From NCBI GenBank assembly GCA_046351255.1, contig JAXLYU010000005.1, forward strand, positions 1,146,583 through 1,210,582: a DNA stretch of 64,000 bases. The letters are read 5' to 3'. Below the pieces are notes generated by a model. That model was not told where the DNA came from. It saw nothing but the letters and a program-made list of their open reading frames with translations, and did not search any database. Shown piece by piece: positions 3,753-38,715 of the stretch. The first letter of the stretch is position 1. The number at the start of each line of letters is the position of its first letter. A program made the position numbers and the translations under genes. Source of the DNA: Labilithrix sp. Lineage in GTDB: Bacteria > Myxococcota_A > Polyangia > Polyangiales > Polyangiaceae.

Positions 3753-4784
<1,032 letters not shown>

Positions 4785-5587: not shown

Positions 5588-5623
5588 TTGACGCTCGCGC
5601 CACGCGAATGACGAAAGCGTCAA
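5588..5623. promoter_or_regulatory. Inverted repeat TTGACGCT-N20-AGCGTCAA in a divergent intergenic region (candidate operator)
   Basis: Perfect 8-bp arms seen directly in the sequence between the minus gene ending at 5580 and the PilZ gene starting at 5740. Confidence 0.3.
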
Positions 5624-5739: not shown

Positions 5740-6129
5740 ATGGGTGCAGCGCTGAAGATCACGCCGGAAGAGGACTTTCGCGTTCGCGAAGACGAACGCA
5801 AGTCGCCCCGCGCGATCGCGTACCTCTGCATCGATCTGTGCTCCGAGCACAACTTCTGGACCGGGCTCACGATGAACATCTCCGAGGGCGGCGTCTTCGT
5901 CGCCACCCACGTCATGCTCCCTGCCGGCTCGCTCGTGGGCCTGCACCTCGAGCTGCCGAGTCACAAGCGCATCATGACGCTCGGCGAGGTCCGCTGGAGC
6001 CGCACGTACTCGGGTGACGACGATGTCCCGCCGGGCCTAGGCATCAAGTTCGTCGGCCTCGACCTCGCGAGCCTCGCCGCCATCCGCAAGTTCATCACGA
6101 CGATCCGCGAGCCGCTGCTCTTCGAATAG
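5740..6129 (+). CDS. PilZ domain protein
   Basis: ATG at 5740 with GGAGGA Shine-Dalgarno 10 nt upstream. EDERKSPR (RxxxR-like) and NISEGGVFV (DxSxGG). Confidence 0.65.
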   Translation: MGAALKITPEEDFRVREDERKSPRAIAYLCIDLCSEHNFWTGLTMNISEGGVFVATHVMLPAGSLVGLHLELPSHKRIMTLGEVRWSRTYSGDDDVPPGLGIKFVGLDLASLAAIRKFITTIREPLLFE

Positions 6130-6150: not shown

Positions 6151-8610
6151 GTGGATTCCGCACCACTTCACGGCTACGAAGACGCCGTGAAGATTCGTCT
6201 CCTGCCCATCTTTGCCCTCCTCGCGACCATCGCGTTCGTCGCCGCCTGCGGTGACTCGAAGCCCGCGCAGTCGCCTGACCTCATCGTCGGCAAGGGTGGT
6301 GATGCAGGCGCCGAGCCGCCGCCGCCGCCGCCGCCCGCACAGGCGGAGGACGAGGCGGCCGTGCCCATCGTCGCGAACGACGCGACGCGAGGGAGCCGGC
6401 TCGCGACGGTGACGATCGTCGTCTTCTCGGACTTCCAGTGTCCGTTCTGTTCGCGTGTGGTGCCGACGCTCGACCGGCTCTACGAGCAGTACGGCGCCGA
6501 CCAGCTGCGCATCGTCTTCAAGAACAATCCGCTCCCGTTCCACCCCCAGGCGCGCATCGCGGCCGAGATCGGGCAGGGCGTCCTCGAGACGGCAGGCAAC
6601 GAGGCTTTCTGGCGTTTCCACAACGCGACGTTCGAGCACCAGAAGGAAATGGAGCCGGCGACGCTCCTGTCGTGGGCCGCTCAGGCCGGCGCGGACGAGC
6701 GCGCGATCAAGGAAGGCATCGAGCAGCACCGGTGGACGGCCAAGATCGAGGTCGACATCTCGGTCGCGCACGGTCGCGGCGCGAACGGCACGCCCACGTT
6801 CTTCATCGACGGCATCGAGCTCGTCGGCGCGCGCAGCATCGACGACTTCAAGGAGATCATCGACGAGGAGCTCGTGAAGAGCCGCGCGCTCGCGAAGGAG
6901 GGGATCCCTCGCGATCAGATCTACACGCGCCTCGCGGGTCAGAACTTCAAGTCGACGAAGGAGCGTCAGGAAGCGGACCGGCAGAAGCGCGACGTGGAGG
7001 AGCGCGAGCGAGCCGCGAGGGACGCGGCGGCCGCGAAGATCGTGCACAAGATCCCGGTCGGAAAGGCGCCGTCGCGCGGCAACCCGAACGCGCAGATCAC
7101 CATCATCGAGTTTGCCGACTACCAGTGTCCGTACTGCAAGGCATCCGAGAAGGTGATGGAGCAGATCAAGACGACGTACGGCGACAAGGTTCGCTTCGTC
7201 TGGCGCGACTTCCCGCTCTCGTTCCACCCACGCGCGGAGCCCGCGGCGGAGCTCGCGCGATTCGCGCTCGCGACGAAGGGCGAGGCGGGGTTCTGGGCGG
7301 TGCACGACGCGATCATGACCTCCACGCCGCAGCTCGAGGACTCGGATCTCGAGGCGGTCGCGACCGCGGCGAAGCTCGACGCGAAGAAGGCCATGGAGGC
7401 GGTGAAGGCGAAGTCCTACGCCTCGCAGATCGAGCTCGATCAGATCGTGGCGGACGACTTCGGCGTCGAGGGCACGCCCAACTTCTTCGTGAACGGTCGT
7501 CACGTGAAGGGAGCGAGGCAGTTCGATGCCTTCAAGGCCATCATCGACGAGGAGCTCGTGCGTGCGGACGAGCTCTTGAAAAAGGGCACCGCGAAGACGG
7601 CGCTCTACGAGGCGCTCATCAAGGACGGCGTCGCGCCCCCGGAGCCGCCGAAGAAGGCGGTCGCGGCCGTGCCTGCGAACGCGCCGTTCCGCGGCTCGCC
7701 GAACGCGAAGGTGGTCATCCAGGAGTTCGCGGACTTCCAGTGCCCGTTCTGCGCAAAGGTGAAGCCGACCATCGACGAGCTCCTGAAGTCGTACCCCGGC
7801 AAGATCAAGGTCGTGTGGCGCGACGATCCGCTCTCGTTCCACCCGGACGCGCCGCTCGCGGCGGAGGCGGCGCGCGAGGCCTACGCGCAGAAGGGGAACG
7901 AGGGCTTCAACAAGTTCACGGATCTCGTCTGGCAGCACCAGCAGGACCTGAAGCGGTCGGATCTCGAGAGCTATGCGCAGCAGGTCGGGCTCGACGCGAC
8001 GAAGTTCGCGGCCGCGCTCGACAAGCACACGCACAAGGCCACGATCGACGCGGAGCAGAAGGCGGCGAACGACGCGGAGCTCGGCGGCACGCCCGCGTTC
8101 TTCATCGGTCCTTATTTCATCTCCGGCGCGAAGGACCTGCCCAAGTTCAAGAAGCTGGTGAACCTCGCGCTCAACCTCCCGGCGGACAAGCTGACGCCGG
8201 AGGCCCCGAAGCCGAAGCCGGCGATCACGCCGCCGACCAACACGCCGCCGACCAACACGCCGCCGACCAACGTCGCCGCGCCGAAGAGCCTCGTGATCGC
8301 AGATACGCAGGTCGGCACGGGCCGCGAGGTGAAGTCGGGCGACAAGGTGAAGGTGCACTACGTCGGCCGTTTGCTCGACGGCACCGAGTTCGATGCGTCA
8401 CGGAAGCACGGGAATGATGGCTTCTCCTTCAAGGTTGGCGCAGGACAGGTGATCAAGGGATGGGATCAGGGCCTCGTCGGGATGAAGGTCGGAGGCAAAC
8501 GGAAGCTGACGATCCCGCCGGACCTTGGCTATGGTGACCGTGGTGCAGGCTCCGTCATTCCGCCGAAGGCGACGCTGGTCTTCGATATCGAGCTTCTGTC
8601 TATCGAGTAG
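6151..8610 (+). CDS. Lipoprotein: three tandem DsbA-like thioredoxin domains (CPFC, CPYC, CPFC) fused to a C-terminal FKBP-type peptidyl-prolyl isomerase
   Basis: Three repeats of ~200 aa, each with a CxxC in FADFQCPFC / FADYQCPYC / FADFQCPFC context and a ...FFI(N)G... motif. C-terminus [18 protein letters not shown]...[33 protein letters not shown] (FKBP). Lipobox FVAACG. A more likely start is the GTG at 6187 ([21 protein letters not shown]). Confidence 0.85.
8227..8271 (+). repeat. Perfect 3 x 15-bp tandem repeat (acgccgccgaccaac) encoding (TPPTN)x3 in the linker before the FKBP domain
   Basis: Seen directly: three identical 15-mers at 8227, 8242 and 8257. Confidence 0.9.
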
Positions 8611-9139
8611 CGTCGCGGTGCTGCTCGCGACGTCCGACGCGTCGGCGATCGAGCAGCAGCATCACCTCGGCCTCGCGCCGGCGTTCGGGATGCTGAACAT
8701 CAAGGACAAGTCGACGGTGAGCGCCGGCTTCGGCGGTGCGCTTCACTACGCGTACGGCCTGACCGACCAGTGGAACCTCACGCTCGACGCGAGCTCGGTC
8801 GTCGTGGCGGCGGATCAGAAGCTCGACCCTCCGGCAAACTTGCAGACGAGACCCGCCGCGGTCCATCAGGCGGGCGCCGGCGTGAGCTACGTGATCGACA
8901 TCCTGCGCGTCATCCCGTGGTTCGGGATCGAGGGTGGCGCGTGCCTCCTCACGGGCGGCACGCTCGATCGCGCCATCGTCGTGCCCGACCTCTCCGTGGG
9001 CGTCGGCCTCGACTACCAGCTCTCACGCACGTTCGCGGTCGGTGTTACAGGAAGGGAACATCTGATGATCAGCAAGCTCGACACGTATCCGAGCTATCTG
9101 ACCGCGATGCTGCGCTTCGAGGTCATGTGGGGCTACTGA
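8525..9139 (+). CDS. Putative outer-membrane beta-barrel-like protein (start ambiguous: ATG 8525 overlapping the upstream gene, or GTG 8618)
   Basis: Alternating hydrophobic beta-strand-like segments; ends in an aromatic residue (MWGY). The 8525 start gives an RRRRR + hydrophobic + ASA signal-peptide-like N-terminus. Confidence 0.4.
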
Positions 9140-9235
9140 GATCCACCGATCGCCACCACGTCATTGCGCAGCGGCCCGACTCCAGCGTCGTTTCGCGCCC
9201 CCGTCCCCCGGCACGCATGGTGCAGCCGACATCAC

Positions 9236-10462
9236 ATGGAGGCGCTGACCTATTCGACCGTGGCCGTGACGATGGGCCTCGTCGTGACGCGCCCGCGCAT
9301 CTCGCCGAAGCTTCGCCTCACGCCGGCGACGGCCGCGCTCGCGGGCGTGGCGGTGCTGACCGCGCTCGGCAGCGTGCACGTCGCCGACATCGGCTGGGCG
9401 GCGCAGACGATGTGGCGCCCGCTCCTCGGGATCGTCTCCATCATGATCATGACGGGTGTCGCGCGCCGGATGGGCGTGCTCGACGGAATCGCCGAGATCA
9501 TCTTTCGCCGCGTCGCGCGGAGCGGCGCCTCGCTCTTCGCGGCCGTGTTCGCGTTCGGCACGTTGACGGCGGCGGTCCTCAACAACGACTCCGCGATCCT
9601 CCTGCTGACGCCGCTCATCGTCGACATCGCGCGGCGGAAGCGTCCCGACCTCGTCGTCCCGCTCGCGTTCGCGGTCTTCCTCTCCGCGGGCGTCGCGCCG
9701 CTCGTCGTGTCGAACCCGATGAACATGGTCGTCGCGTCGTATGCGCACATCGGCTTCAACGACTACGCGCGCGCGATGGCGCTGCCGGCGCTCGCGGGCT
9801 GCCTCGCGACGTTCGCGACCGCGTTCTTCCTCTTCCGTCGCGAGCTCGCGGCGTCGAAGGCGGCGCCGCCGGGCGAAGCGCCGCTCGCGCCGCTCCGCGG
9901 TCTCCGCCTCGTCACGCTGCTCGCGCTCGGCGCGGTCGTCGCCGCGTACCCCGTGGTCTCGTACTTCGGCGGCCCGGTCTGGATCGTCGCGTTCGTCGGC
10001 GCGCTCCTCCTCCTCGCGATCGGCCGCGTGGCCGGCGCGAGCACGAAGGACGTGGTCAAGGACGGCATCCACCTCGACACCCTCGTCTTCCTCGTCGCGG
10101 CGCTGATCCTCAGCATCGGGCTTCGCAACGAGGGGATCGTCGAGCGGCTCTCCTCGCTCTACCAGGGCGCGGGCGCGATGCGCGTCGGTCTGATCTCGGC
10201 CGGCGGCAGCGCGCTCCTCAACAACCACCCGATGAGCCACCTCAACATGTTCGCGCTCGGCCACCACGGTGGCACGAGCGTGCTCGCCGCGCTCATCGGA
10301 GGCGACCTCGGCCCGCGCCTCTTCCCGATGGGCTCGCTCGCGGGCCTCCTCTGGCTCGAGATGCTCCGCCGCTCCGGCGTCGTGCTTCCGATGCGGAGGT
10401 TCTTGATCGTCGGCGCCGTCGCCACGCTCCCCGCGCTCGTGGTGTCCCTCGCCGCGCTTTGA
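9236..10462 (+). CDS. ArsB/NhaD-superfamily permease (arsenite or citrate-type anion transporter)
   Basis: ~10-12 predicted TM helices. Family-like motifs LLLTPLIVDIARR and VVSNPMNMVVAS. Start chosen at the ATG at 9236 (MEALTYSTV...). Confidence 0.7.
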   Translation: MEALTYSTVAVTMGLVVTRPRISPKLRLTPATAALAGVAVLTALGSVHVADIGWAAQTMWRPLLGIVSIMIMTGVARRMGVLDGIAEIIFRRVARSGASLFAAVFAFGTLTAAVLNNDSAILLLTPLIVDIARRKRPDLVVPLAFAVFLSAGVAPLVVSNPMNMVVASYAHIGFNDYARAMALPALAGCLATFATAFFLFRRELAASKAAPPGEAPLAPLRGLRLVTLLALGAVVAAYPVVSYFGGPVWIVAFVGALLLLAIGRVAGASTKDVVKDGIHLDTLVFLVAALILSIGLRNEGIVERLSSLYQGAGAMRVGLISAGGSALLNNHPMSHLNMFALGHHGGTSVLAALIGGDLGPRLFPMGSLAGLLWLEMLRRSGVVLPMRRFLIVGAVATLPALVVSLAAL

Positions 10463-10515
10463 TCGGCGAGCACGCTGGTCGGCTTGCTACCGGAGCAAGC
10501 AAGCCCACAAGCATC

Positions 10516-11322
10516 GTGTACGATGGCGATGTGGGTCGATTCACGGCGGGGCTCGTCATCCTTGCGACGGCGGCGGCAGGTCTCGTCGCGCTGGCGTGCA
10601 GCTCGTTCAGCGCGGACGGTAAGAACGACTCAGCGACCGTCGGCGATGCCGGTCGTGTGACCACCCCGGACGGTGCGAGTGCCCCCAGCTTCTGCGCGAC
10701 GGTGGACGCCGCCGCTCTGGTGCTCTGCGACGATTTCGATGATCGGTTCGACGCTGCTCCCTGGAGGCCCGAGCGGGGGGATCCCCAAGCGGCGTACCAG
10801 ATCACCGCCGACGCCTCGACGTCACCGCCGTCGAGCCTGGAGGCGGTGATAGCGCCTGGTCCCGATCCGAGCCCGGATGCCCGCTACCGCTTCGAGCTAC
10901 CGGGCTCACCGAAGCACATCGTCGTCTCGGGGATGCTGCGCGTACCCACCCGCGAGCTCAACGCTGGTGGCGTGCATGTCGCCATGATCCAGGTCGGCGA
11001 CATAGGCGGGGTCTTTCTGAACCTGAACGGCGACGTCGCCGAGGTCGTGATTCAAGACGGCGGACGGGAGTTTCAGTCGAGCCCAGGGGTCGGAGTGGTC
11101 CCCGCTGACTGGACGTCGTTCACGCTCGCGGTCGATCTCACGATCCCTGCCGCGTCGCTGCGGCTGGGCGACAAGGCGCTTGGACGCGTGCCCCTCGACA
11201 CGTCGAAGGCGGCGATCGAAGCCTTCACCCCATCGATCTACCTCGGTATCTGGGAAGGAAAGGCGTCTTCTCAGGTTGGGTTCGTCGCGCAGTTCGATGA
11301 CGTCGCGATTCGCGCTTACTGA
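10516..11322 (+). CDS. Lipoprotein of unknown function
   Basis: GTG start giving VGRFTAGLVILATAAAGLVALACSS (lipobox LAC). The rest of the listed 850-aa ORF upstream is an Arg-rich artefact. Confidence 0.5.
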   Translation: MYDGDVGRFTAGLVILATAAAGLVALACSSFSADGKNDSATVGDAGRVTTPDGASAPSFCATVDAAALVLCDDFDDRFDAAPWRPERGDPQAAYQITADASTSPPSSLEAVIAPGPDPSPDARYRFELPGSPKHIVVSGMLRVPTRELNAGGVHVAMIQVGDIGGVFLNLNGDVAEVVIQDGGREFQSSPGVGVVPADWTSFTLAVDLTIPAASLRLGDKALGRVPLDTSKAAIEAFTPSIYLGIWEGKASSQVGFVAQFDDVAIRAY

Positions 11323-11368: not shown

Positions 11369-12622
11369 CTACTTCTTCGCTTGTGGCTCGAGCGACGGGC
11401 GCTCGTTGCCGAGGCCGAAGCCGTCGTGCAGCGCGCGCACCGCGAGCTCCGTGTACTTCTGGTGCACGAGGCAGCTCACCTTGATCTCCGACGTCGAGAT
11501 GGCCTGGATGTTGATCCCCTCGGCCGCGAGGAGCTTGAACATCTTCGCCGCGATGCCCGCGTGAGAGCGCATGCCGAGACCGACGATCGAGACCTTCACG
11601 ACGTCCTCGTCGTAGCGGACCTCGGTGGAGCCGAGCTTCTTGCCGATCTCCTCGATCCACGGACGGGCGCGCTGGAGGTCGGTCTGCGCGAGCGTGAACG
11701 TGACGTCGGCGCGGTCGCTCGCGCCGGTGGTCGCGTTCTGGATGATCATGTCGACGGAGACGTTCTTCTCCGCGAGATGCGAGAAGAGCTCCGCGACGAC
11801 GCCCGGCTTGTCGTGCAGGCCGATGACGTTCACGCGCGCCTCGTTCTTGTCGTAGGCGACGCCCGCGACGACGACGTCTTCCAGTGACTTGTCCTCCCCC
11901 GTCACCCACGTGCCCTGGGCATCGCTGAACGAGCTACGAACATGAACCGGAACGCCGTACTTCATCGCAATCTCCACGCTGCGGATCTGCAGCACCTTCG
12001 CGCCAAGTGACGCGAGCTCGAGCATCTCCTCGTAGGAGATCTTCGGAATCTTCTTCGCCGACGCGCAGATGTTGGGGTCGGTGGTGTACACGCCGTCGAC
12101 GTCGGTGAAGATCTCGCAGGCGTCGGCCTTGATGGCGGCAGCCACCGCGACGGCGGAGGTGTCCGAGCCGCCACGACCGAGCGTCGTGATGTTGCCCGCG
12201 TCGTCCGCGCCCTGGAAGCCCGCGATGACCACGATCTCGCCGCGCTTGCAGGCGTCGCGGATCTTCTCGCTGTCGATCGACTTGATGCGCGCCTTGGTGA
12301 ACGCGTCGTCGGTGAGGACCTTCACCTGGTGGCCGAGGAGCGAGCGCGCCTTGCCGCCCTCCGCCTGGATCGCCATCGAGGTGAGGGCGCAGGTGACCTG
12401 CTCGCCCGTTGCTGCGATGACGTCCATCTCGCGCTGATCCGGCACCTGGGTGACGTCGTGCGCGAGCTTGAGGAGGCGATTCGTCTCGCCGCTCATCGCG
12501 GAGACGACGACGACCACGTCGTTGCCTTCCTTCTGCGTCGCGAGCGCGCGCTTCGCCACGTTCTTGATGCGGTCGACGGTGCCGACCGACGTGCCACCGA
12601 ATTTCTGAACGATGAGAGCCAA
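11369..12622 (-). CDS. lysC: Aspartate kinase
   Basis: LIVQKFGGTSV (amino-acid kinase N-terminus), VVVVSAMSGETN, C-terminal ACT-domain repeats (VNVIGLHDKPGV..., VKVSIVGLGMRSHAG). TTG start at 12622 gives ~417 aa. Confidence 0.9.
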   Translation of the reverse strand: MALIVQKFGGTSVGTVDRIKNVAKRALATQKEGNDVVVVVSAMSGETNRLLKLAHDVTQVPDQREMDVIAATGEQVTCALTSMAIQAEGGKARSLLGHQVKVLTDDAFTKARIKSIDSEKIRDACKRGEIVVIAGFQGADDAGNITTLGRGGSDTSAVAVAAAIKADACEIFTDVDGVYTTDPNICASAKKIPKISYEEMLELASLGAKVLQIRSVEIAMKYGVPVHVRSSFSDAQGTWVTGEDKSLEDVVVAGVAYDKNEARVNVIGLHDKPGVVAELFSHLAEKNVSVDMIIQNATTGASDRADVTFTLAQTDLQRARPWIEEIGKKLGSTEVRYDEDVVKVSIVGLGMRSHAGIAAKMFKLLAAEGINIQAISTSEIKVSCLVHQKYTELAVRALHDGFGLGNERPSLEPQAKK

Positions 12623-12719
12623 GGGGCCGAGACGTCTATTCGGCCGAGCGCGATGCGTCAACACACGGGGAAGCCGCGGGGGTTGACCCCGCTCCGAAAT
12701 TCGTGGATATCGCCGCGCG

Positions 12720-13046
12720 GTGGGGCCGTACGCCGGATACATCGTGCAGACGCTGGTGACGCTGCTCGCCGTGTGCGCGCTCGCCTTCGTCGTGCTTTAC
12801 GGCGCGCGCCGCCTCGGCCTGGGCCGGCCGCGAGGCCCGATCTCCCTCGTGGGCCTGCTCCCGCTCGACGCCCGGCGCTCGATCTACCTCGTCAAGGTCG
12901 CGGGTCAGGTCATCGTCGTCGGCGCGTCCGAGGCCGGCTTCACGAAGCTCGGCGAGCTCTCCGCGGACGACGTCCCGGAGGACGTCCCCGCCGCCGCGGG
13001 CCCGTTCTCCGACGTGCTCGCGCGCGTACTGAAGACGAAGAAATGA
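12720..13046 (+). CDS. FliO-like small membrane protein
   Basis: Single TM (LVTLLAVCALAFVVLYGARRL), then SLVGLLPLDARRSIYLVKVAGQVIVVGASEAGFTKLGEL, matching the FliO pattern. Immediately upstream of fliP. Confidence 0.5.
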   Translation: MGPYAGYIVQTLVTLLAVCALAFVVLYGARRLGLGRPRGPISLVGLLPLDARRSIYLVKVAGQVIVVGASEAGFTKLGELSADDVPEDVPAAAGPFSDVLARVLKTKK

Positions 13047-13059
13047 GCGCGCGGTCCCC

Positions 13060-13728
13060 ATGACCGACTTCCTGGGAAAGCCGATCGCGCTCGTCGTCGC
13101 GCTCGCGCTGGTCTCGCTCCTTCCGTTCGTCTTCATGGGCGTCACCGCCTTCGTGAAGATCTCGACCGTCCTCCAGATCGTCCGGAGCGCGATCGGCGCG
13201 CAGTCGGTGCCCTCGAACACGGTCATCATGGCGCTCGCGACGTCGCTGACGCTCATCGCGATGGCGCCCGTCGGCCAGCGCATCTTCGATCGCGCCGCGC
13301 CGCTGGCGGCTCAGGCGGAGAAGAAGAACCAGGACACGAGCGCGCTCATCGAGCAGGGCGTCCTCGCCGTCAGCGAGCCGATGCGCGATTTTCTCGCGAA
13401 GAACTCCGCGGAGAAGGAGCAAACGCGCTTCCTCCTCGTCGCGAAGAACGCCCGGCCGGAGGCGGAGCGCGACAAGGTCGGCGCAAAGGACCTCTCCGTG
13501 CTCGTGCCCGCCTTCGTGGTGACGGAGCTGACGGAGGCCTTCGCCATCGGCTTCCTCATCTACCTGCCGTTCCTCGTCATCGATCTCGTGATCGCCAACG
13601 TGCTCCTCGCGCTCGGCATGCAAATGCTGAGTCCCACGCAGGTGAGTCTGCCCTTCAAGCTCCTCCTCTTCGTCGCCATCGACGGCTGGGGGCTCTTGGC
13701 GCAGGCCCTCGTTCAAGGCTACAGATAG
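13060..13728 (+). CDS. fliP: FliP/SctR family export-apparatus protein (flagellar or T3SS type)
   Basis: TAFVKISTVLQIVRSAIGAQSVPSNTVIMALATSLTLIAMAPV and C-terminal LPFKLLLFVAIDGW are characteristic FliP/YscR motifs. 222 aa. Confidence 0.85.
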   Translation: MTDFLGKPIALVVALALVSLLPFVFMGVTAFVKISTVLQIVRSAIGAQSVPSNTVIMALATSLTLIAMAPVGQRIFDRAAPLAAQAEKKNQDTSALIEQGVLAVSEPMRDFLAKNSAEKEQTRFLLVAKNARPEAERDKVGAKDLSVLVPAFVVTELTEAFAIGFLIYLPFLVIDLVIANVLLALGMQMLSPTQVSLPFKLLLFVAIDGWGLLAQALVQGYR

Positions 13729-37659: not shown

Positions 37660-38715
37660 ATGGGGAGGTCGCTGCTACGCGCCATCTTCCTCGGGAGCGT
37701 CACGTCCGCGTTCGTCGCGTGCAACGCGATCACGGGGCTCGGCGATCTCGTGACCGAGCCCGATGCGCCGGACGCGTCCGAGGCGAGCGTCGCCCCATTG
37801 CCCACGACGACCGGCACCGTGCCTGCTCCGGGGCTCGACGCCGGCAGGGACGGTGGCAGCCTCGGCACCGTCGATGCGGAGGTGGTCGACGGCTGCAGCA
37901 CGACGAGCTGCGAGGCGCTCCCGCTGGGCTTCCAGCTCGTCGCGATTGGCCCACGGAACGATGCGTGTCCCAACGGCTTCGGTCAGCCGCTCGATGCGGT
38001 CGAAGAGCCGGCGGTCGGTGCTGGCGCGTGTACGTGCGGCTGCGATCTGAAGCAAGCGCCGAGCTGCACCGTCGGAGGCGGTGCGACCATCACGCTCGGC
38101 TACGGAGCGGTCGGGAGCGGCACCTGCGCGATGGCCGGCCAGGACGTTCCGACCGGCTGTTCGACCGCGGGATTCATGGGCCCGTTCCTCCCTTACGAGC
38201 GAAGCTATACCGCGCCGCTGGCGACGCTGACCGGCGGCGCGTGCGACGTGAAGGTCGTCACCGACGACACCAAGCTCTCTACGAAGAGCCTCCGGGTGTG
38301 CCAGGCGACGGTGCTGCCACAGTGCGAAGGAAAGACGTGCCCGCCCGCGCTCACCGGATTCACCGCGTGCATCGCAGCGACGGGAGACGTGGCATGCCCC
38401 GCCGCTTGGCCGACGAAGCACCTCGTCGGTACGAGCGCGAGCTTCACGTGCAGCGCCGGATGCTCGTGCACGGTGGGCGGCCAGTGCTCGACCACGGGCA
38501 CGCTCAAGTACTACCCGACCGCGAACTGCACCGGCGGCGCGGACCTGACATACCCCGTCGGCGGCTGCGGGGCGACGCCCGGCTCCGGCGCGACCGTCTA
38601 TGGCTCGCACCGCTACGATCCGGCCGGGCCGTCGAGCACGCGGTGCAACACGGGCGGAACCTCGACGCCGAGCGCGCCGTCGCTCGCCCAGCCGTCGACG
38701 GTGTGCTGTCGCTGA
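37660..38715 (+). CDS. Cys-rich secreted lipoprotein (37 Cys)
   Basis: Lipobox FVACN. Repeated C-x-x-C, C-T-C-G-C and CSAGCSC motifs. Protein-like G/T/A-rich composition, versus an Arg-rich antisense artefact. Confidence 0.55.
   Translation: MGRSLLRAIFLGSVTSAFVACNAITGLGDLVTEPDAPDASEASVAPLPTTTGTVPAPGLDAGRDGGSLGTVDAEVVDGCSTTSCEALPLGFQLVAIGPRNDACPNGFGQPLDAVEEPAVGAGACTCGCDLKQAPSCTVGGGATITLGYGAVGSGTCAMAGQDVPTGCSTAGFMGPFLPYERSYTAPLATLTGGACDVKVVTDDTKLSTKSLRVCQATVLPQCEGKTCPPALTGFTACIAATGDVACPAAWPTKHLVGTSASFTCSAGCSCTVGGQCSTTGTLKYYPTANCTGGADLTYPVGGCGATPGSGATVYGSHRYDPAGPSSTRCNTGGTSTPSAPSLAQPSTVCCR

Follow-up and report, generated by a model that had tools for sequence, protein, structure and literature searches.

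Introduction

Multivalent DsbA-like isomerases have been described in several bacteria, namely, PmScsC (PMC5524982), CcScsC (PMC8900818), and Wolbachia alpha-DsbA2 (PMC6450060). Their functional unit comprises three DsbA-like domains with flexible linkers and is a homotrimer assembled on an N-terminal coiled-coil stalk. Oligomerization has been proposed to block the oxidation of DsbA-like proteins by DsbB (PMC5524982, PMC8900818, PMC6450060, PMC11634996), and whether valency and oligomerization decide between an oxidase and an isomerase role is an open question (PMC11634996). More generally, thiol oxidoreductases of the BdbD/MdbA/ScsC type (4pwp, 3eu3, 4xvw, 6nen, and 4gxz) are built on a thioredoxin core that carries a helical insert. 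These extracytoplasmic, membrane-tethered enzymes carry a CPxC motif and a Thr-cisPro pair and have one catalytic domain per chain; those that are multivalent owe this to oligomerization stalks.

A DsbA-like domain can also be joined to a module of the FKBP family. Francisella tularensis DsbA/FipB is an outer membrane lipoprotein with DsbA and FKBP-N domains and with both oxidoreductase and isomerase activity (PMC4688374, PMC5160417). It is bifunctional, serving as an oxidoreductase and as an isomerase/chaperone. It has a single DsbA domain, and its FKBP-N is a dimerization domain, not a catalytic FKBP_C. In eukaryotes, the protein disulfide isomerase (PDI; a-b-b'-a') carries several thioredoxin-fold domains and more than one catalytic CxxC per chain; these are plain thioredoxin domains, two of them noncatalytic, with no attached peptidyl-prolyl isomerase (PPIase). 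The substrates of PDI are unfolded secretory proteins, and it acts together with PPIases.

Here, we analyze a gene of Labilithrix sp., called the foldase gene below, whose product links three paralogous DsbA-like domains and an FKBP domain in one lipoprotein. The gene is real, is conserved in relatives, and is built solely from well-known folding-enzyme parts. Since the types of all its modules are well understood, it leaves current concepts unchanged. Our literature search returned no paper on DsbA-FKBP fusions, tandem DsbA domains, or Labilithrix disulfide biology with this architecture. The protein is probably a membrane-tethered, multivalent catalyst of oxidative folding in the cell envelope, and judging from its domains it most likely forms or reshuffles disulfides and isomerizes prolines.

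An intact reading frame encodes a four-module lipoprotein

The locus is found in a 64-kb window, i.e., the whole stretch of DNA that was analyzed, on contig JAXLYU010000005.1 of Labilithrix sp. assembly GCA_046351255.1; position 1 is the start of the window. The longest open reading frame (ORF) extends over 6151-8610 on the forward strand and counts 819 aa from its first GTG. Because of the N termini of the orthologues and of an NCBI protein of 807 aa that is 100% identical (P0001), we set the start at GTG 6187. The foldase gene (6187..8610, +) thus encodes an 807-aa lipoprotein with three DsbA-like domains and an FKBP domain, a model based on the ORF, Pfam, P0001, and an AlphaFold2 (AF2) prediction. 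In the initial annotation the feature spanned 6151-9139, which does contain the foldase ORF but takes in a second gene in its last part.

We considered whether the fused ORF might stem from an error of assembly or annotation or might be a decaying pseudogene. The reading frame is uninterrupted, without the frameshift that the initial annotation had named as fatal to its proposal. The NCBI database contains the identical protein P0001, two copies with approximately 99% identity come from independent assemblies, and the same architecture is present in more than 100 orthologous clusters. The GC3 value of the gene, 0.90, is typical for coding sequence of the Labilithrix genome analyzed. The artifact or pseudogene reading is effectively refuted by these observations, and we give it practically no credence.

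The whole protein contains exactly seven Cys residues, that of the lipobox and those of three CxxC motifs (CPFC, CPYC, and CPFC). Across 45 orthologues with identities as low as 47%, none of the seven varies, and the same is true of the three Thr-cisPro pairs and of nine residues in the FKBP active site. The full-chain AF2 model has a mean pLDDT of 90.9, and disorder (pLDDT <50) is confined to residues 20-42, in an N-terminal tether, and 681-696, in a linker. The pTM is 0.61, so the model is no reliable guide to how the modules are placed relative to one another. Pfam matches, the seven Cys, conservation, and the AF2 model all agree with the description first given of this protein as a lipoprotein with three DsbA-like domains, a repeat linker, and an FKBP; the catalytic residues of the DsbA-like domains are intact, and the linker is flexible.

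Export signal and tether

The protein starts with a signal peptide that ends in a V-A-A-C lipobox (6187..6249, +; sequence pattern), whose Cys21 is the putative lipidated N terminus. C21 is invariant in the 45 orthologues; among the best 120 homologues, 101 carry the FKBP, and 92 of these show the lipobox pattern. The signal peptide and the conserved lipobox predict export to an oxidizing compartment, as in the DsbA-like family. In M. xanthus, Lys at position +2 marks inner membrane lipoproteins (PMC3222651). The +2 residue is Gly in the foldase analyzed and in 81 of the 92 proteins with a lipobox pattern, and it is Lys in none of the 92. By the M. xanthus sorting rule, extrapolated here to Polyangia, a class to which Myxococcus does not belong, this Gly points to a location at the inner face of the outer membrane. 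An M. xanthus-type ECM signal, Ala at +7, is present in the foldase but unconserved (44/92 Pro, 27/92 Ala) and was discounted.

Residues 22-55 (6250..6351, +) form a disordered Pro-rich tether, in line with the low pLDDT from residue 20 to 42. It includes a (CCG)n poly-Pro tract (6315-6335, +; TRF, (GCC)7) with 7 Pro in the analyzed sequence versus 6 in the near-identical strains P0121 and P0122. As this tether is what AF2 places N-terminal to domain 1, the foldase has no trimerization stalk of the ScsC or alpha-DsbA2 kind. It shares with those proteins the three DsbA-like domains per functional unit and the flexible linkers, whereas its trivalency is covalent. Further differences are its diverged domains, its lipid anchor, and the added PPIase; an isomerase role like theirs is putative.

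Three DsbA-like domains

Full-length Pfam searches returned Thioredoxin_4 over three stretches (E = 5.7e-76), DSBA, and FKBP_C (E = 3e-36). The initial annotation had proposed these searches as a check, and the domains also pass in isolation, with Thioredoxin_4 scores of 75.7, 96.2, and 94.1 bits for domains 1, 2, and 3 (cutoff, 23.2 bits), DSBA scores of 71.9, 81.8, and 82.3 bits (cutoff, 25.6 bits), and an FKBP_C score of 128.8 bits. Domain 1, including a helical extension at its C terminus, covers residues 56-256 (6352..6954, +), domain 2 with its extension residues 289-480 (7051..7626, +), and domain 3 residues 499-665 (7681..8181, +). Their pairwise identity is 36-40%. The active sites are CPFC in domain 1 (6439-6450, +; C85 and C88), CPYC in domain 2 (7126-7137, +; C314 and C317), and CPFC in domain 3 (7741-7752, +; C519 and C522), and the matching Thr-cisPro pairs, T202-P203, T430-P431, and T635-P636, are invariant like the Cys residues. 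All three domains have a G-T-P loop, with the cis conformation predicted. In the AF2 model, the pLDDT of the DsbA domains, including domain 1, exceeds 95, and strands and helices follow the order expected of the DsbA fold. Domains 1 and 2 are connected by an ER/K-rich helix (residues 257-288; 6955..7050, +; helix at 257-284 in AF2), which is weakly conserved (majority frequency, 0.33); most orthologues have poly-Asp instead.

In a separate sequence search with residues 53-671 (819-aa numbering), the PDB relatives of the DsbA region were extracytoplasmic thiol oxidoreductases, namely, 4pwp, BdbD (3eu3), and ScsC (4xvw, 6nen, and 4gxz). The top relative of domain 3 was 4pwp, a "DsbA" that has CPFC as well (E = 5e-16). 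A full-length PDB sequence search and a Foldseek search with the full-length model gave FKBP only among the matches listed. Each foldase domain resembles the BdbD/MdbA/ScsC-type enzymes in its thioredoxin core with helical insert, its CPxC and Thr-cisPro, and its predicted extracytoplasmic, membrane-tethered location; unlike them, the foldase has three linked paralogous domains and an FKBP. Several thioredoxin-fold domains with more than one catalytic CxxC per chain are found in PDI as well, but that kinship is at the level of the thioredoxin superfamily only. A match to the Rcas_1661 (seleno)lipoprotein family (NF041057) was rejected: the full-length score of 201 bits (cutoff, 190 bits) is the sum of the three domains, each of which scores 68-73 bits, whereas in that family the score comes from one domain of ~247 aa.

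The proximity to ScsC bears on the direction of catalysis. The foldase could be mainly a reductive, isomerase, or stress-defense enzyme like ScsC or DsbC, kept reduced by a membrane reductase of the DsbD/ScsB type; its task would then be the repair of misoxidized proteins or of sulfenylated cysteines, or copper sequestration, rather than making disulfides de novo, and covalent triplication would stand in for ScsC trimerization. ScsC is indeed among the closest solved relatives, domain 2 has CPYC, and the known trimeric DsbA-like proteins are isomerases (PMC5524982, PMC8900818, PMC6450060, PMC11634996). We nevertheless regard this alternative as rather unlikely, in view of a best PDB match that is DsbA-type with identical CPFC and of the absence of scsB, dsbD, and copper-resistance genes from the foldase locus and the syntenic loci. 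Moreover, the flexible, poorly conserved interdomain linkers should leave each active site sterically accessible, unlike in compact trimers. CPFC and CPYC are found both in oxidases (4pwp) and in reductases/isomerases (ScsC), so the motif leaves the catalytic direction unfixed; so does relatedness, as ScsC was also found to act both as an oxidase and as a reductase in vivo (PMC11634996).

Repeat linker and FKBP domain

Domain 3 is followed by a disordered Pro/Thr/Ala linker (residues 666-700; 8182..8286, +), which contains the second low-pLDDT segment and is the least conserved part of the foldase (majority frequency, 0.21). Within it, three perfect tandem copies of a 15-bp unit (8227-8271, +) encode TPPTN x3, as first noted from the sequence. 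TRF reports 8226-8271 with a period of 15, 3.1 copies, and 100% matches, and by exact count the 15-mer ACGCCGCCGACCAAC has three head-to-tail copies at 8227-8271 versus 0.03 expected by chance. The initial annotation also saw in the repeat a potential slippage-prone linker of variable length. The copy number does differ between related lineages, with three TPPTN copies in the analyzed protein, one in P0002 and P0003, and about four degenerate copies in P0004; in contrast, the repeat is the same across three strains with approximately 99% identity, in which the poly-Pro tract of the tether varies instead. By this pattern, the repeat resembles a low-complexity linker of the ordinary kind that evolves fast, not a proven switch.

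The C-terminal module (residues 701-807; 8287..8607, +) is an FKBP-type peptidyl-prolyl isomerase domain, with 51% identity to human FKBP12 and ~60% identity, at an rmsd of 0.8 Å, to BPSS1823, an active Mip-like FKBP of Burkholderia pseudomallei (Foldseek). The pocket residues Y725, F735, D736, F746, V755, I756, W759, Y782, and F799, all invariant in the 45 orthologues, align with FKBP12 Y26, F36, D37, F46, V55, I56, W59, Y82, and F99. With all the active-site residues of the Mip/FkpA/FKBP12-type PPIases, the domain is a canonical FKBP_C and a predicted prolyl isomerase. Mip and FkpA have an FKBP_N helix and are stand-alone or dimeric, whereas this FKBP, the last module of a Dsb lipoprotein, comes without it; no Pfam match to the FKBP_N dimerization domain was found in the foldase, and FkpA/FklB models matched the C-terminal catalytic part only, far under their cutoffs. 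The foldase resembles FipB as a lipoprotein in which DsbA-like and FKBP-family modules are joined, with the order of the domains reversed.

Proposed function of the foldase

Three intact DsbA-like domains, a flexible linker, and an FKBP on a lipoprotein are naturally read as a tethered periplasmic folding catalyst. The protein would be exported by Sec, lipidated at Cys21, and hang off the membrane via its ~35-residue disordered tether. Its three DsbA modules (CP[F/Y]C plus Thr-cisPro), each predicted to be independently redox active, would swap disulfides with exported Cys-containing proteins, and the FKBP, on a second flexible linker of ~35 residues, could catalyze cis/trans isomerization of Xaa-Pro bonds in the same clients. 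One beads-on-a-string enzyme would then handle both slow covalent folding steps. Three active sites per chain should favor fast oxidation of multicysteine clients as well as the rearrangement of incorrect disulfides.

The active sites would need recycling by a membrane partner encoded elsewhere, of the DsbB/VKOR type for oxidation or the DsbD type for reduction. A heuristic screen for small multi-transmembrane (TM), Cys-containing proteins found no DsbB-, VKOR-, or DsbD-like gene in the 64-kb window. The same TM/Cys screen for DsbB/VKOR-like genes at 87 loci, 79 of them from the contig scan matches listed, gave 43 heterogeneous candidates, none recurrent, and the literature on VKOR and DsbB in Myxococcota yielded no redox partner of the triple-DsbA-FKBP protein.

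Myxobacteria export very many cysteine-rich proteins, and the foldase suggests how they may organize folding in the envelope. A single-chain helper of this kind could also be of use for folding recombinant disulfide-rich proteins.

The triple-DsbA cassette is widespread in Myxococcota

More than 100 clusters (46-100% identical) share the foldase architecture, with all seven Cys and the FKBP retained; where they are named, the names are Labilithrix sp., L. luteola, or Myxococcales. Nearly all of the best 120 clusters retain all three CxxC, and so do nearly all of the 101 in which the FKBP motif is present. The four-module architecture, called rare in the initial annotation, is so outside the clade but common within it, given these 101 of 120 best clusters. 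Across the Myxococcota, the cassette occurs without FKBP in forms that have three to six domains, a TM anchor, or a fused Ser/Thr kinase, and in one relative (L084) an FKBP-less form occupies the same genomic slot. A contig scan returned FKBP-less relatives only, among at least 79 loci listed, and is no guide to the frequency of the FKBP form among species.

Ser/Thr kinases of other Myxococcota (P0237, P0239, P0249, and P0297) have the cassette as their extracytoplasmic part, and there it must be a sensor or binding domain rather than a bulk foldase. By analogy, the three domains of the foldase might be primarily a redox-sensing or client-binding scaffold, not a turnover catalyst, and recruit unfolded clients to the FKBP. 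Some representatives of the wider family also appear to lack one or more CxxC. Within the orthologous group, by contrast, the three CxxC and the cisPro loops are (nearly) invariant, as expected for catalysis and not for mere binding, and we consider a primarily scaffolding role highly improbable.

The foldase belongs to a family of natural covalently trivalent DsbA proteins with variants of three to six domains, which offers a comparative system for the question of valency. The FKBP-bearing lineage can be compared with a sister lineage that has an FKBP-less orthologue in the same slot.

Genomic neighborhood

The genomic context of the foldase gene was taken from orthologue loci. Directly upstream lies a PilZ-domain gene (5740..6129, +; Pfam PilZ, E = 1.3e-11), with a likely start at ATG 5740 and a product of 129 aa; its longest ORF begins at 5608, and its score for NCBIfam TIGR02266, 60.3 bits, is under the 68.7 cutoff. 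In four relatives (L002, L003, L086, and L087), an orthologue of 129-130 aa precedes the foldase gene at a distance of 33-60 nt, so the PilZ gene described as leading into the foldase is a syntenic neighbor.

At the 3' end, the overlapping outer membrane-like ORF of the initial annotation proved to be a real, syntenic gene for a small 8-stranded outer membrane beta-barrel (8531..9139, +), as judged from orthologues, AF2, and Foldseek. The stretch for its signal peptide lies, in another reading frame, within the final ~80 nt of the sequence that codes for the FKBP, and the overlap recurs, with 80 nt in L086 and 68 nt in L002. Orthologues of the barrel show 45-77% identity, with WGY or WGF as their last residues; AF2 predicts 8 strands at a pLDDT of 84, and Foldseek matches are NspA, Ail, OmpX, OmpW, and the OmpA TM domain. 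The barrel gene is also present 3' of the FKBP-less orthologue in L084. Between 5400 and 10600, a promoter and terminator scan gave no promoter-like site, and terminator-like matches were at background level, which leaves spacing, overlap, and synteny as the only basis for the operon structure. An ArsB/CitMHS permease neighbor was discounted, as neither the L. luteola loci nor the L084 locus has it.

The triple-DsbA and barrel genes are adjacent or overlapping in all close relatives examined, with or without FKBP, and the barrel family is similar in size to the foldase family and restricted to the same clade. The foldase might hence be a dedicated outer membrane biogenesis factor, with the cotranscribed barrel as docking partner or client and an FKBP that acts like BamJ, an FKBP lipoprotein at the BAM complex of Bacteroidota (PMC12578637). 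FKBP_C lipoproteins can serve as BAM subunits (PMC12578637), and the foldase has no inner membrane retention residue. However, the barrel has a single, nonconserved Cys and is thus not a disulfide client, the BamJ model (NF053689) gave 72.5 bits against a cutoff of 100 over the FKBP_C part only, i.e., generic similarity, and the barrel neighbor occurs at just 5 of 79 Myxococcota triple-DsbA loci among the matches listed. A dedicated role of this kind appears quite unlikely.

An extended form of the oxidative-folding model, which taken as a whole is very unlikely, would make the chain an outer membrane-anchored, periplasm-spanning disulfide relay or assembly line that docks at the cotranslated barrel. 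The span would be made up by the tether, the DsbA domains (three, of ~4 nm each), the helical spacer, the 35-residue linker, and the FKBP, and oxidizing or reducing equivalents from an inner membrane partner would pass from domain to domain toward folding sites at the outer membrane. The cassette would have been reused in other Myxococcota as the sensory input of Ser/Thr kinases that monitor the redox or folding state of the envelope.

The initial annotation suggested that the foldase may service the many Cys-rich secreted lipoproteins of the window, a putative link, and cited a Cys-rich gene at 37660, which lies 30 kb from the foldase gene. The initial annotation credited it with 37 Cys, and our count is 25.

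A lipoprotein with three DsbA-like domains and an FKBP domain

The gene at 6187 to 8610 on the plus strand of the window, whose G+C content is 68%, codes for an 807-residue lipoprotein, here called the foldase. It lies in a single unbroken open reading frame (6151 to 8610), and its start was placed at the GTG codon at 6187 based on the N termini of the identical NCBI protein and of orthologues (MKIRLL..., MKTLPRF...). The protein is already deposited with a generic annotation, 'thioredoxin domain-containing protein [Labilithrix sp.]' (P0001, 807 aa), and its domains are ordinary. The initial annotation had described three DsbA-like domains, each with its own CxxC motif, and an FKBP domain on one polypeptide, within a span reaching 9139. 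This description was accurate; that span includes a second gene. Pfam searches matched Thioredoxin_4/DSBA in three stretches and FKBP_C once. Tested alone, the excised DsbA domains scored 75.7, 96.2, and 94.1 bits with Thioredoxin_4 (cutoff, 23.2), and the excised FKBP domain scored 128.8 bits with FKBP_C; the DsbA modules are all genuine members of the Thioredoxin_4/DSBA family, and the last module is a genuine FKBP_C domain. No frameshift splits the gene, and none of the three domains failed thioredoxin prediction. Pairwise identity among them is 36 to 40%. The foldase has exactly seven cysteines, namely, that of the lipobox and those of the CPFC, CPYC, and CPFC motifs.

The protein begins with a signal peptide ending in a V-A-A-C lipobox (residues 1 to 21) and a Pro-rich tether (22 to 55). 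DsbA domain 1 with a short helical extension (56 to 256), an ER/K-rich helix (257 to 288), DsbA domain 2 with its extension (289 to 480), a short Pro-rich connector (481 to 498), and DsbA domain 3 (499 to 665) follow, and a Pro/Thr/Ala linker with a TPPTN repeat (666 to 700) leads to the FKBP domain (701 to 807). The connector between domains 1 and 2 (6955 to 7050) is predicted to form a single ER/K-rich helix here (residues 257 to 284); in most orthologues its place is taken by a poly-Asp stretch. An AlphaFold2 model built with 45 orthologues as input had a mean pLDDT of 90.9, with disorder only at the extreme N terminus (1 to 4), in the tether (20 to 42), and in the repeat linker (681 to 696). 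Its pTM of 0.61 makes the mutual arrangement of the modules unreliable.

In the 45-sequence alignment, C21, the six active-site cysteines, and the Thr-Pro pairs of the three cis-Pro loops are invariant, as are Y725, F735, D736, F746, V755, I756, W759, Y782, and F799 of the FKBP domain, which a pairwise alignment identified as the equivalents of FKBP12 active-site residues. The majority residue frequency is high in the four domains (0.69 to 0.78), whereas it is low in the connectors (0.21 to 0.47). The catalytic residues of all three DsbA-type modules are under strong constraint, the FKBP domain is canonical with a fully conserved pocket, and flexible spacers link one module to the next.

The TPPTN repeat lies in the most variable part of the foldase, the linker between DsbA domain 3 and FKBP, whose length ranges widely among homologues. 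As initially noted, the tandem repeat is perfect: TRF reported a period-15 array at 8226 to 8271 (3.1 copies, 100% matches), with the 15-mer head to tail three times (0.03 expected by chance), encoding TPPTN three times. The proposed length variability held among relatives, with one copy in P0002 and P0003, which are about 80% identical to the foldase, and about four degenerate copies in P0004. However, when copy number was compared among strains as suggested, P0121 and P0122, about 99% identical copies from other assemblies, also had exactly three, and there was no evidence for a role as a switch. What differs in those copies is a (CCG)n poly-Pro tract in the tether (6315 to 6335), with 7 Pro in the window and P0001 and 6 in P0121 and P0122. 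Given this pattern, the TPPTN repeat is a recent product of slippage or duplication in a fast-evolving spacer.

Distribution of the architecture

We searched a collection of 5.8 billion proteins for homologues and took the best 120 clusters, which showed 46 to 100% identity with nearly full-length coverage; their source names, where given, were Labilithrix sp., L. luteola, or Myxococcales. The FKBP motif was present in 101 of the 120, nearly all of which had three CP[F/Y]C motifs and a lipobox, typically with seven cysteines. These shared motifs define the architecture as that of a conserved orthologous group, and the four-module arrangement, initially considered rare, is not so within this clade. 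The remainder comprised FKBP-less forms of about 660 aa and four- or five-domain forms with an N-terminal transmembrane anchor and no lipobox.

A scan of species-representative genomes detected at least 594 relatives across Myxococcota, including, among the matches listed, Sorangium, Chondromyces, Nannocystis, Sandaracinaceae, Myxococcaceae, Anaeromyxobacteraceae, and Bradymonadia. The listed matches span only the triple DsbA part and do not measure the frequency of the FKBP form; likewise, no FKBP was found within 6 kb at any of the 79 loci examined among them, a count that does not estimate that frequency either. Each DsbA domain of the foldase is closest to the same-position domain in the Sorangium and Chondromyces proteins, and hence the triplication predates the Labilitrichaceae-Polyangiaceae split. 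No such correspondence was found with the Myxococcaceae, Anaeromyxobacteraceae, or Bradymonadia proteins.

When 1.84 billion representatives clustered at 50% identity were searched exhaustively with HMMER, 2,974 proteins passed E ≤ 1e-30. Local HMM counts on the best 150 of these gave three DsbA domains in 114, four in 21, and five or six in four, and only about nine combined DsbA with FKBP. Several proteins of about 1,000 aa from other Myxococcota (P0237, P0239, P0249, and P0297) carry an N-terminal Ser/Thr kinase followed by the triple DsbA cassette, presumably periplasmic, which suggests envelope redox or folding sensing. P0233 and P0236 have five and six DsbA-like domains in a single chain, and P0266 (758 aa) is made of six FKBP_C domains.

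The literature searched contained no paper on Myxococcota proteins with several DsbA domains in tandem or on fusions of such proteins to FKBP. The foldase is chiefly of value as a DsbA that is naturally and covalently trivalent and has both FKBP-plus and FKBP-less orthologues, which suits it to tests of how valency affects Dsb function.

Predicted function of the foldase

By its sequence, the foldase is predicted to be exported, and it carries a lipidation signal. From established family knowledge, it would be expected to catalyze thiol-disulfide exchange with exported proteins and prolyl isomerization, and so both of the slow covalent steps in protein folding. Among 92 orthologues, residue +2 is Gly in 81 and Lys in none. 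Lys at this position marks inner-membrane lipoproteins in Myxococcus xanthus (PMC3222651); extrapolating this rule across classes, the foldase would sit at the inner face of the outer membrane. Its modules may cooperate on the same client, and a membrane partner encoded elsewhere would recycle it; heuristic screens revealed no candidate partner in the window and none recurrent near related loci.

The closest solved relative of the DsbA domains is 4pwp, presumably a Corynebacterium diphtheriae protein, which was deposited as 'DsbA' and has the same CPFC motif. ScsC proteins, which act as reductases or isomerases, are nearly as close. The characterized trivalent DsbA-like enzymes are all isomerases (PMC5524982, PMC8900818, PMC6450060), and oligomerization is proposed to block DsbB-driven oxidation (PMC11634996). 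As there are relatives of both kinds, we favor as the probable function a general catalyst of oxidative folding that can act as an oxidase and also reshuffle disulfides. A mainly reductive or isomerase role, one of its two main rivals, we consider unlikely.

In function, the foldase comes closest to the Francisella lipoprotein DsbA/FipB, which combines DsbA with a noncatalytic FKBP-N domain (PMC4688374), and to the trimeric ScsC isomerases; eukaryotic PDI is an analogue in concept. Assignment to the Mip/FkpA or FipB type was rejected for lack of FKBP_N, and to the trimeric ScsC type for lack of a trimerization stalk. The whole protein does not belong to the Rcas_1661 family either, as its above-threshold score there is the sum of three subthreshold domains, and it is not BamJ, scoring 72.5 bits with that model (cutoff, 100).

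An overlapping barrel gene and the neighborhood

The second gene (8531 to 9139, plus strand) codes for an outer membrane protein (OMP) with 45 to 77% identity to its orthologues and, as is typical of barrel proteins, an aromatic C terminus (WGY or WGF). It was modeled as an 8-stranded barrel (pLDDT, 84) resembling NspA, Ail, OmpX, OmpW, and the transmembrane domain of OmpA. The family comprises about 110 clusters, with named members mostly from Labilithrix sp. and one weak match (E = 7e-18) named Polyangiaceae. The start needed for its conserved signal peptide lies in a different frame, about 80 nt within the FKBP coding sequence, so that 8531 to 8610 encodes both the conserved FKBP C terminus and the OMP signal peptide. 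Independent gene calls show the same overlap in two relatives (80 nt in L086, 68 nt in L002); it is absent from L. luteola. The NCBI call in the window genome (P0123, 173 aa) omits the signal peptide.

Close relatives share the gene order PilZ, foldase, small OMP, ArsB/CitMHS permease, aspartokinase (opposite strand), FliO, and FliP. L. luteola (L001, 5826 to 10310) has two triple DsbA genes in tandem, with a 670-aa FKBP-less paralogue directly upstream, and lacks the PilZ and permease genes at this locus. In another relative (L084, 4319 to 8977), a 658-aa FKBP-less triple DsbA gene sits ahead of the OMP and aspartokinase genes, in the position orthologous to the foldase gene, and is preceded by a 674-aa paralogue, indicating that this locus either gained or lost FKBP. 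The triple DsbA protein and the small OMP thus form the conserved core, with FKBP a lineage-specific addition at the C terminus. This pairing would suit a foldase dedicated to the outer membrane or to the barrel, the other main rival reading, but the barrel has a single, nonconserved cysteine, and such a role appears very improbable.

A PilZ gene just upstream of the foldase gene (5740 to 6129, plus strand) and, farther upstream, a sigma-54 activator gene (3753 to 4784, minus strand) were confirmed by Pfam. A 114-aa ORF at 1914 to 2258 occupies the position of another PilZ gene in syntenic loci, where it is flanked by an EAL-domain response regulator. This regulatory neighborhood is syntenic in close relatives. 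Downstream, a long plus-strand ORF (8770 to 11322) seems to contain at its C-terminal end, from about 10560, another lipoprotein gene in its own right (...LVALAC SSF...), which lies between those for the permease and the aspartokinase. Two plus-strand ORFs (12720 to 13728) occupy the positions of FliO- and FliP-family genes in the syntenic loci L001 to L003 and L086. The divergent aspartokinase gene (11369 to 12742, minus strand) adjoins them, a conserved pairing that is odd for a myxobacterium. Finally, a putative 351-aa lipoprotein is encoded 30 kb from the foldase gene (37660 to 38715, plus strand). The initially proposed link between the two has little or no support; the lipoprotein has 25 cysteines rather than the 37 initially counted.
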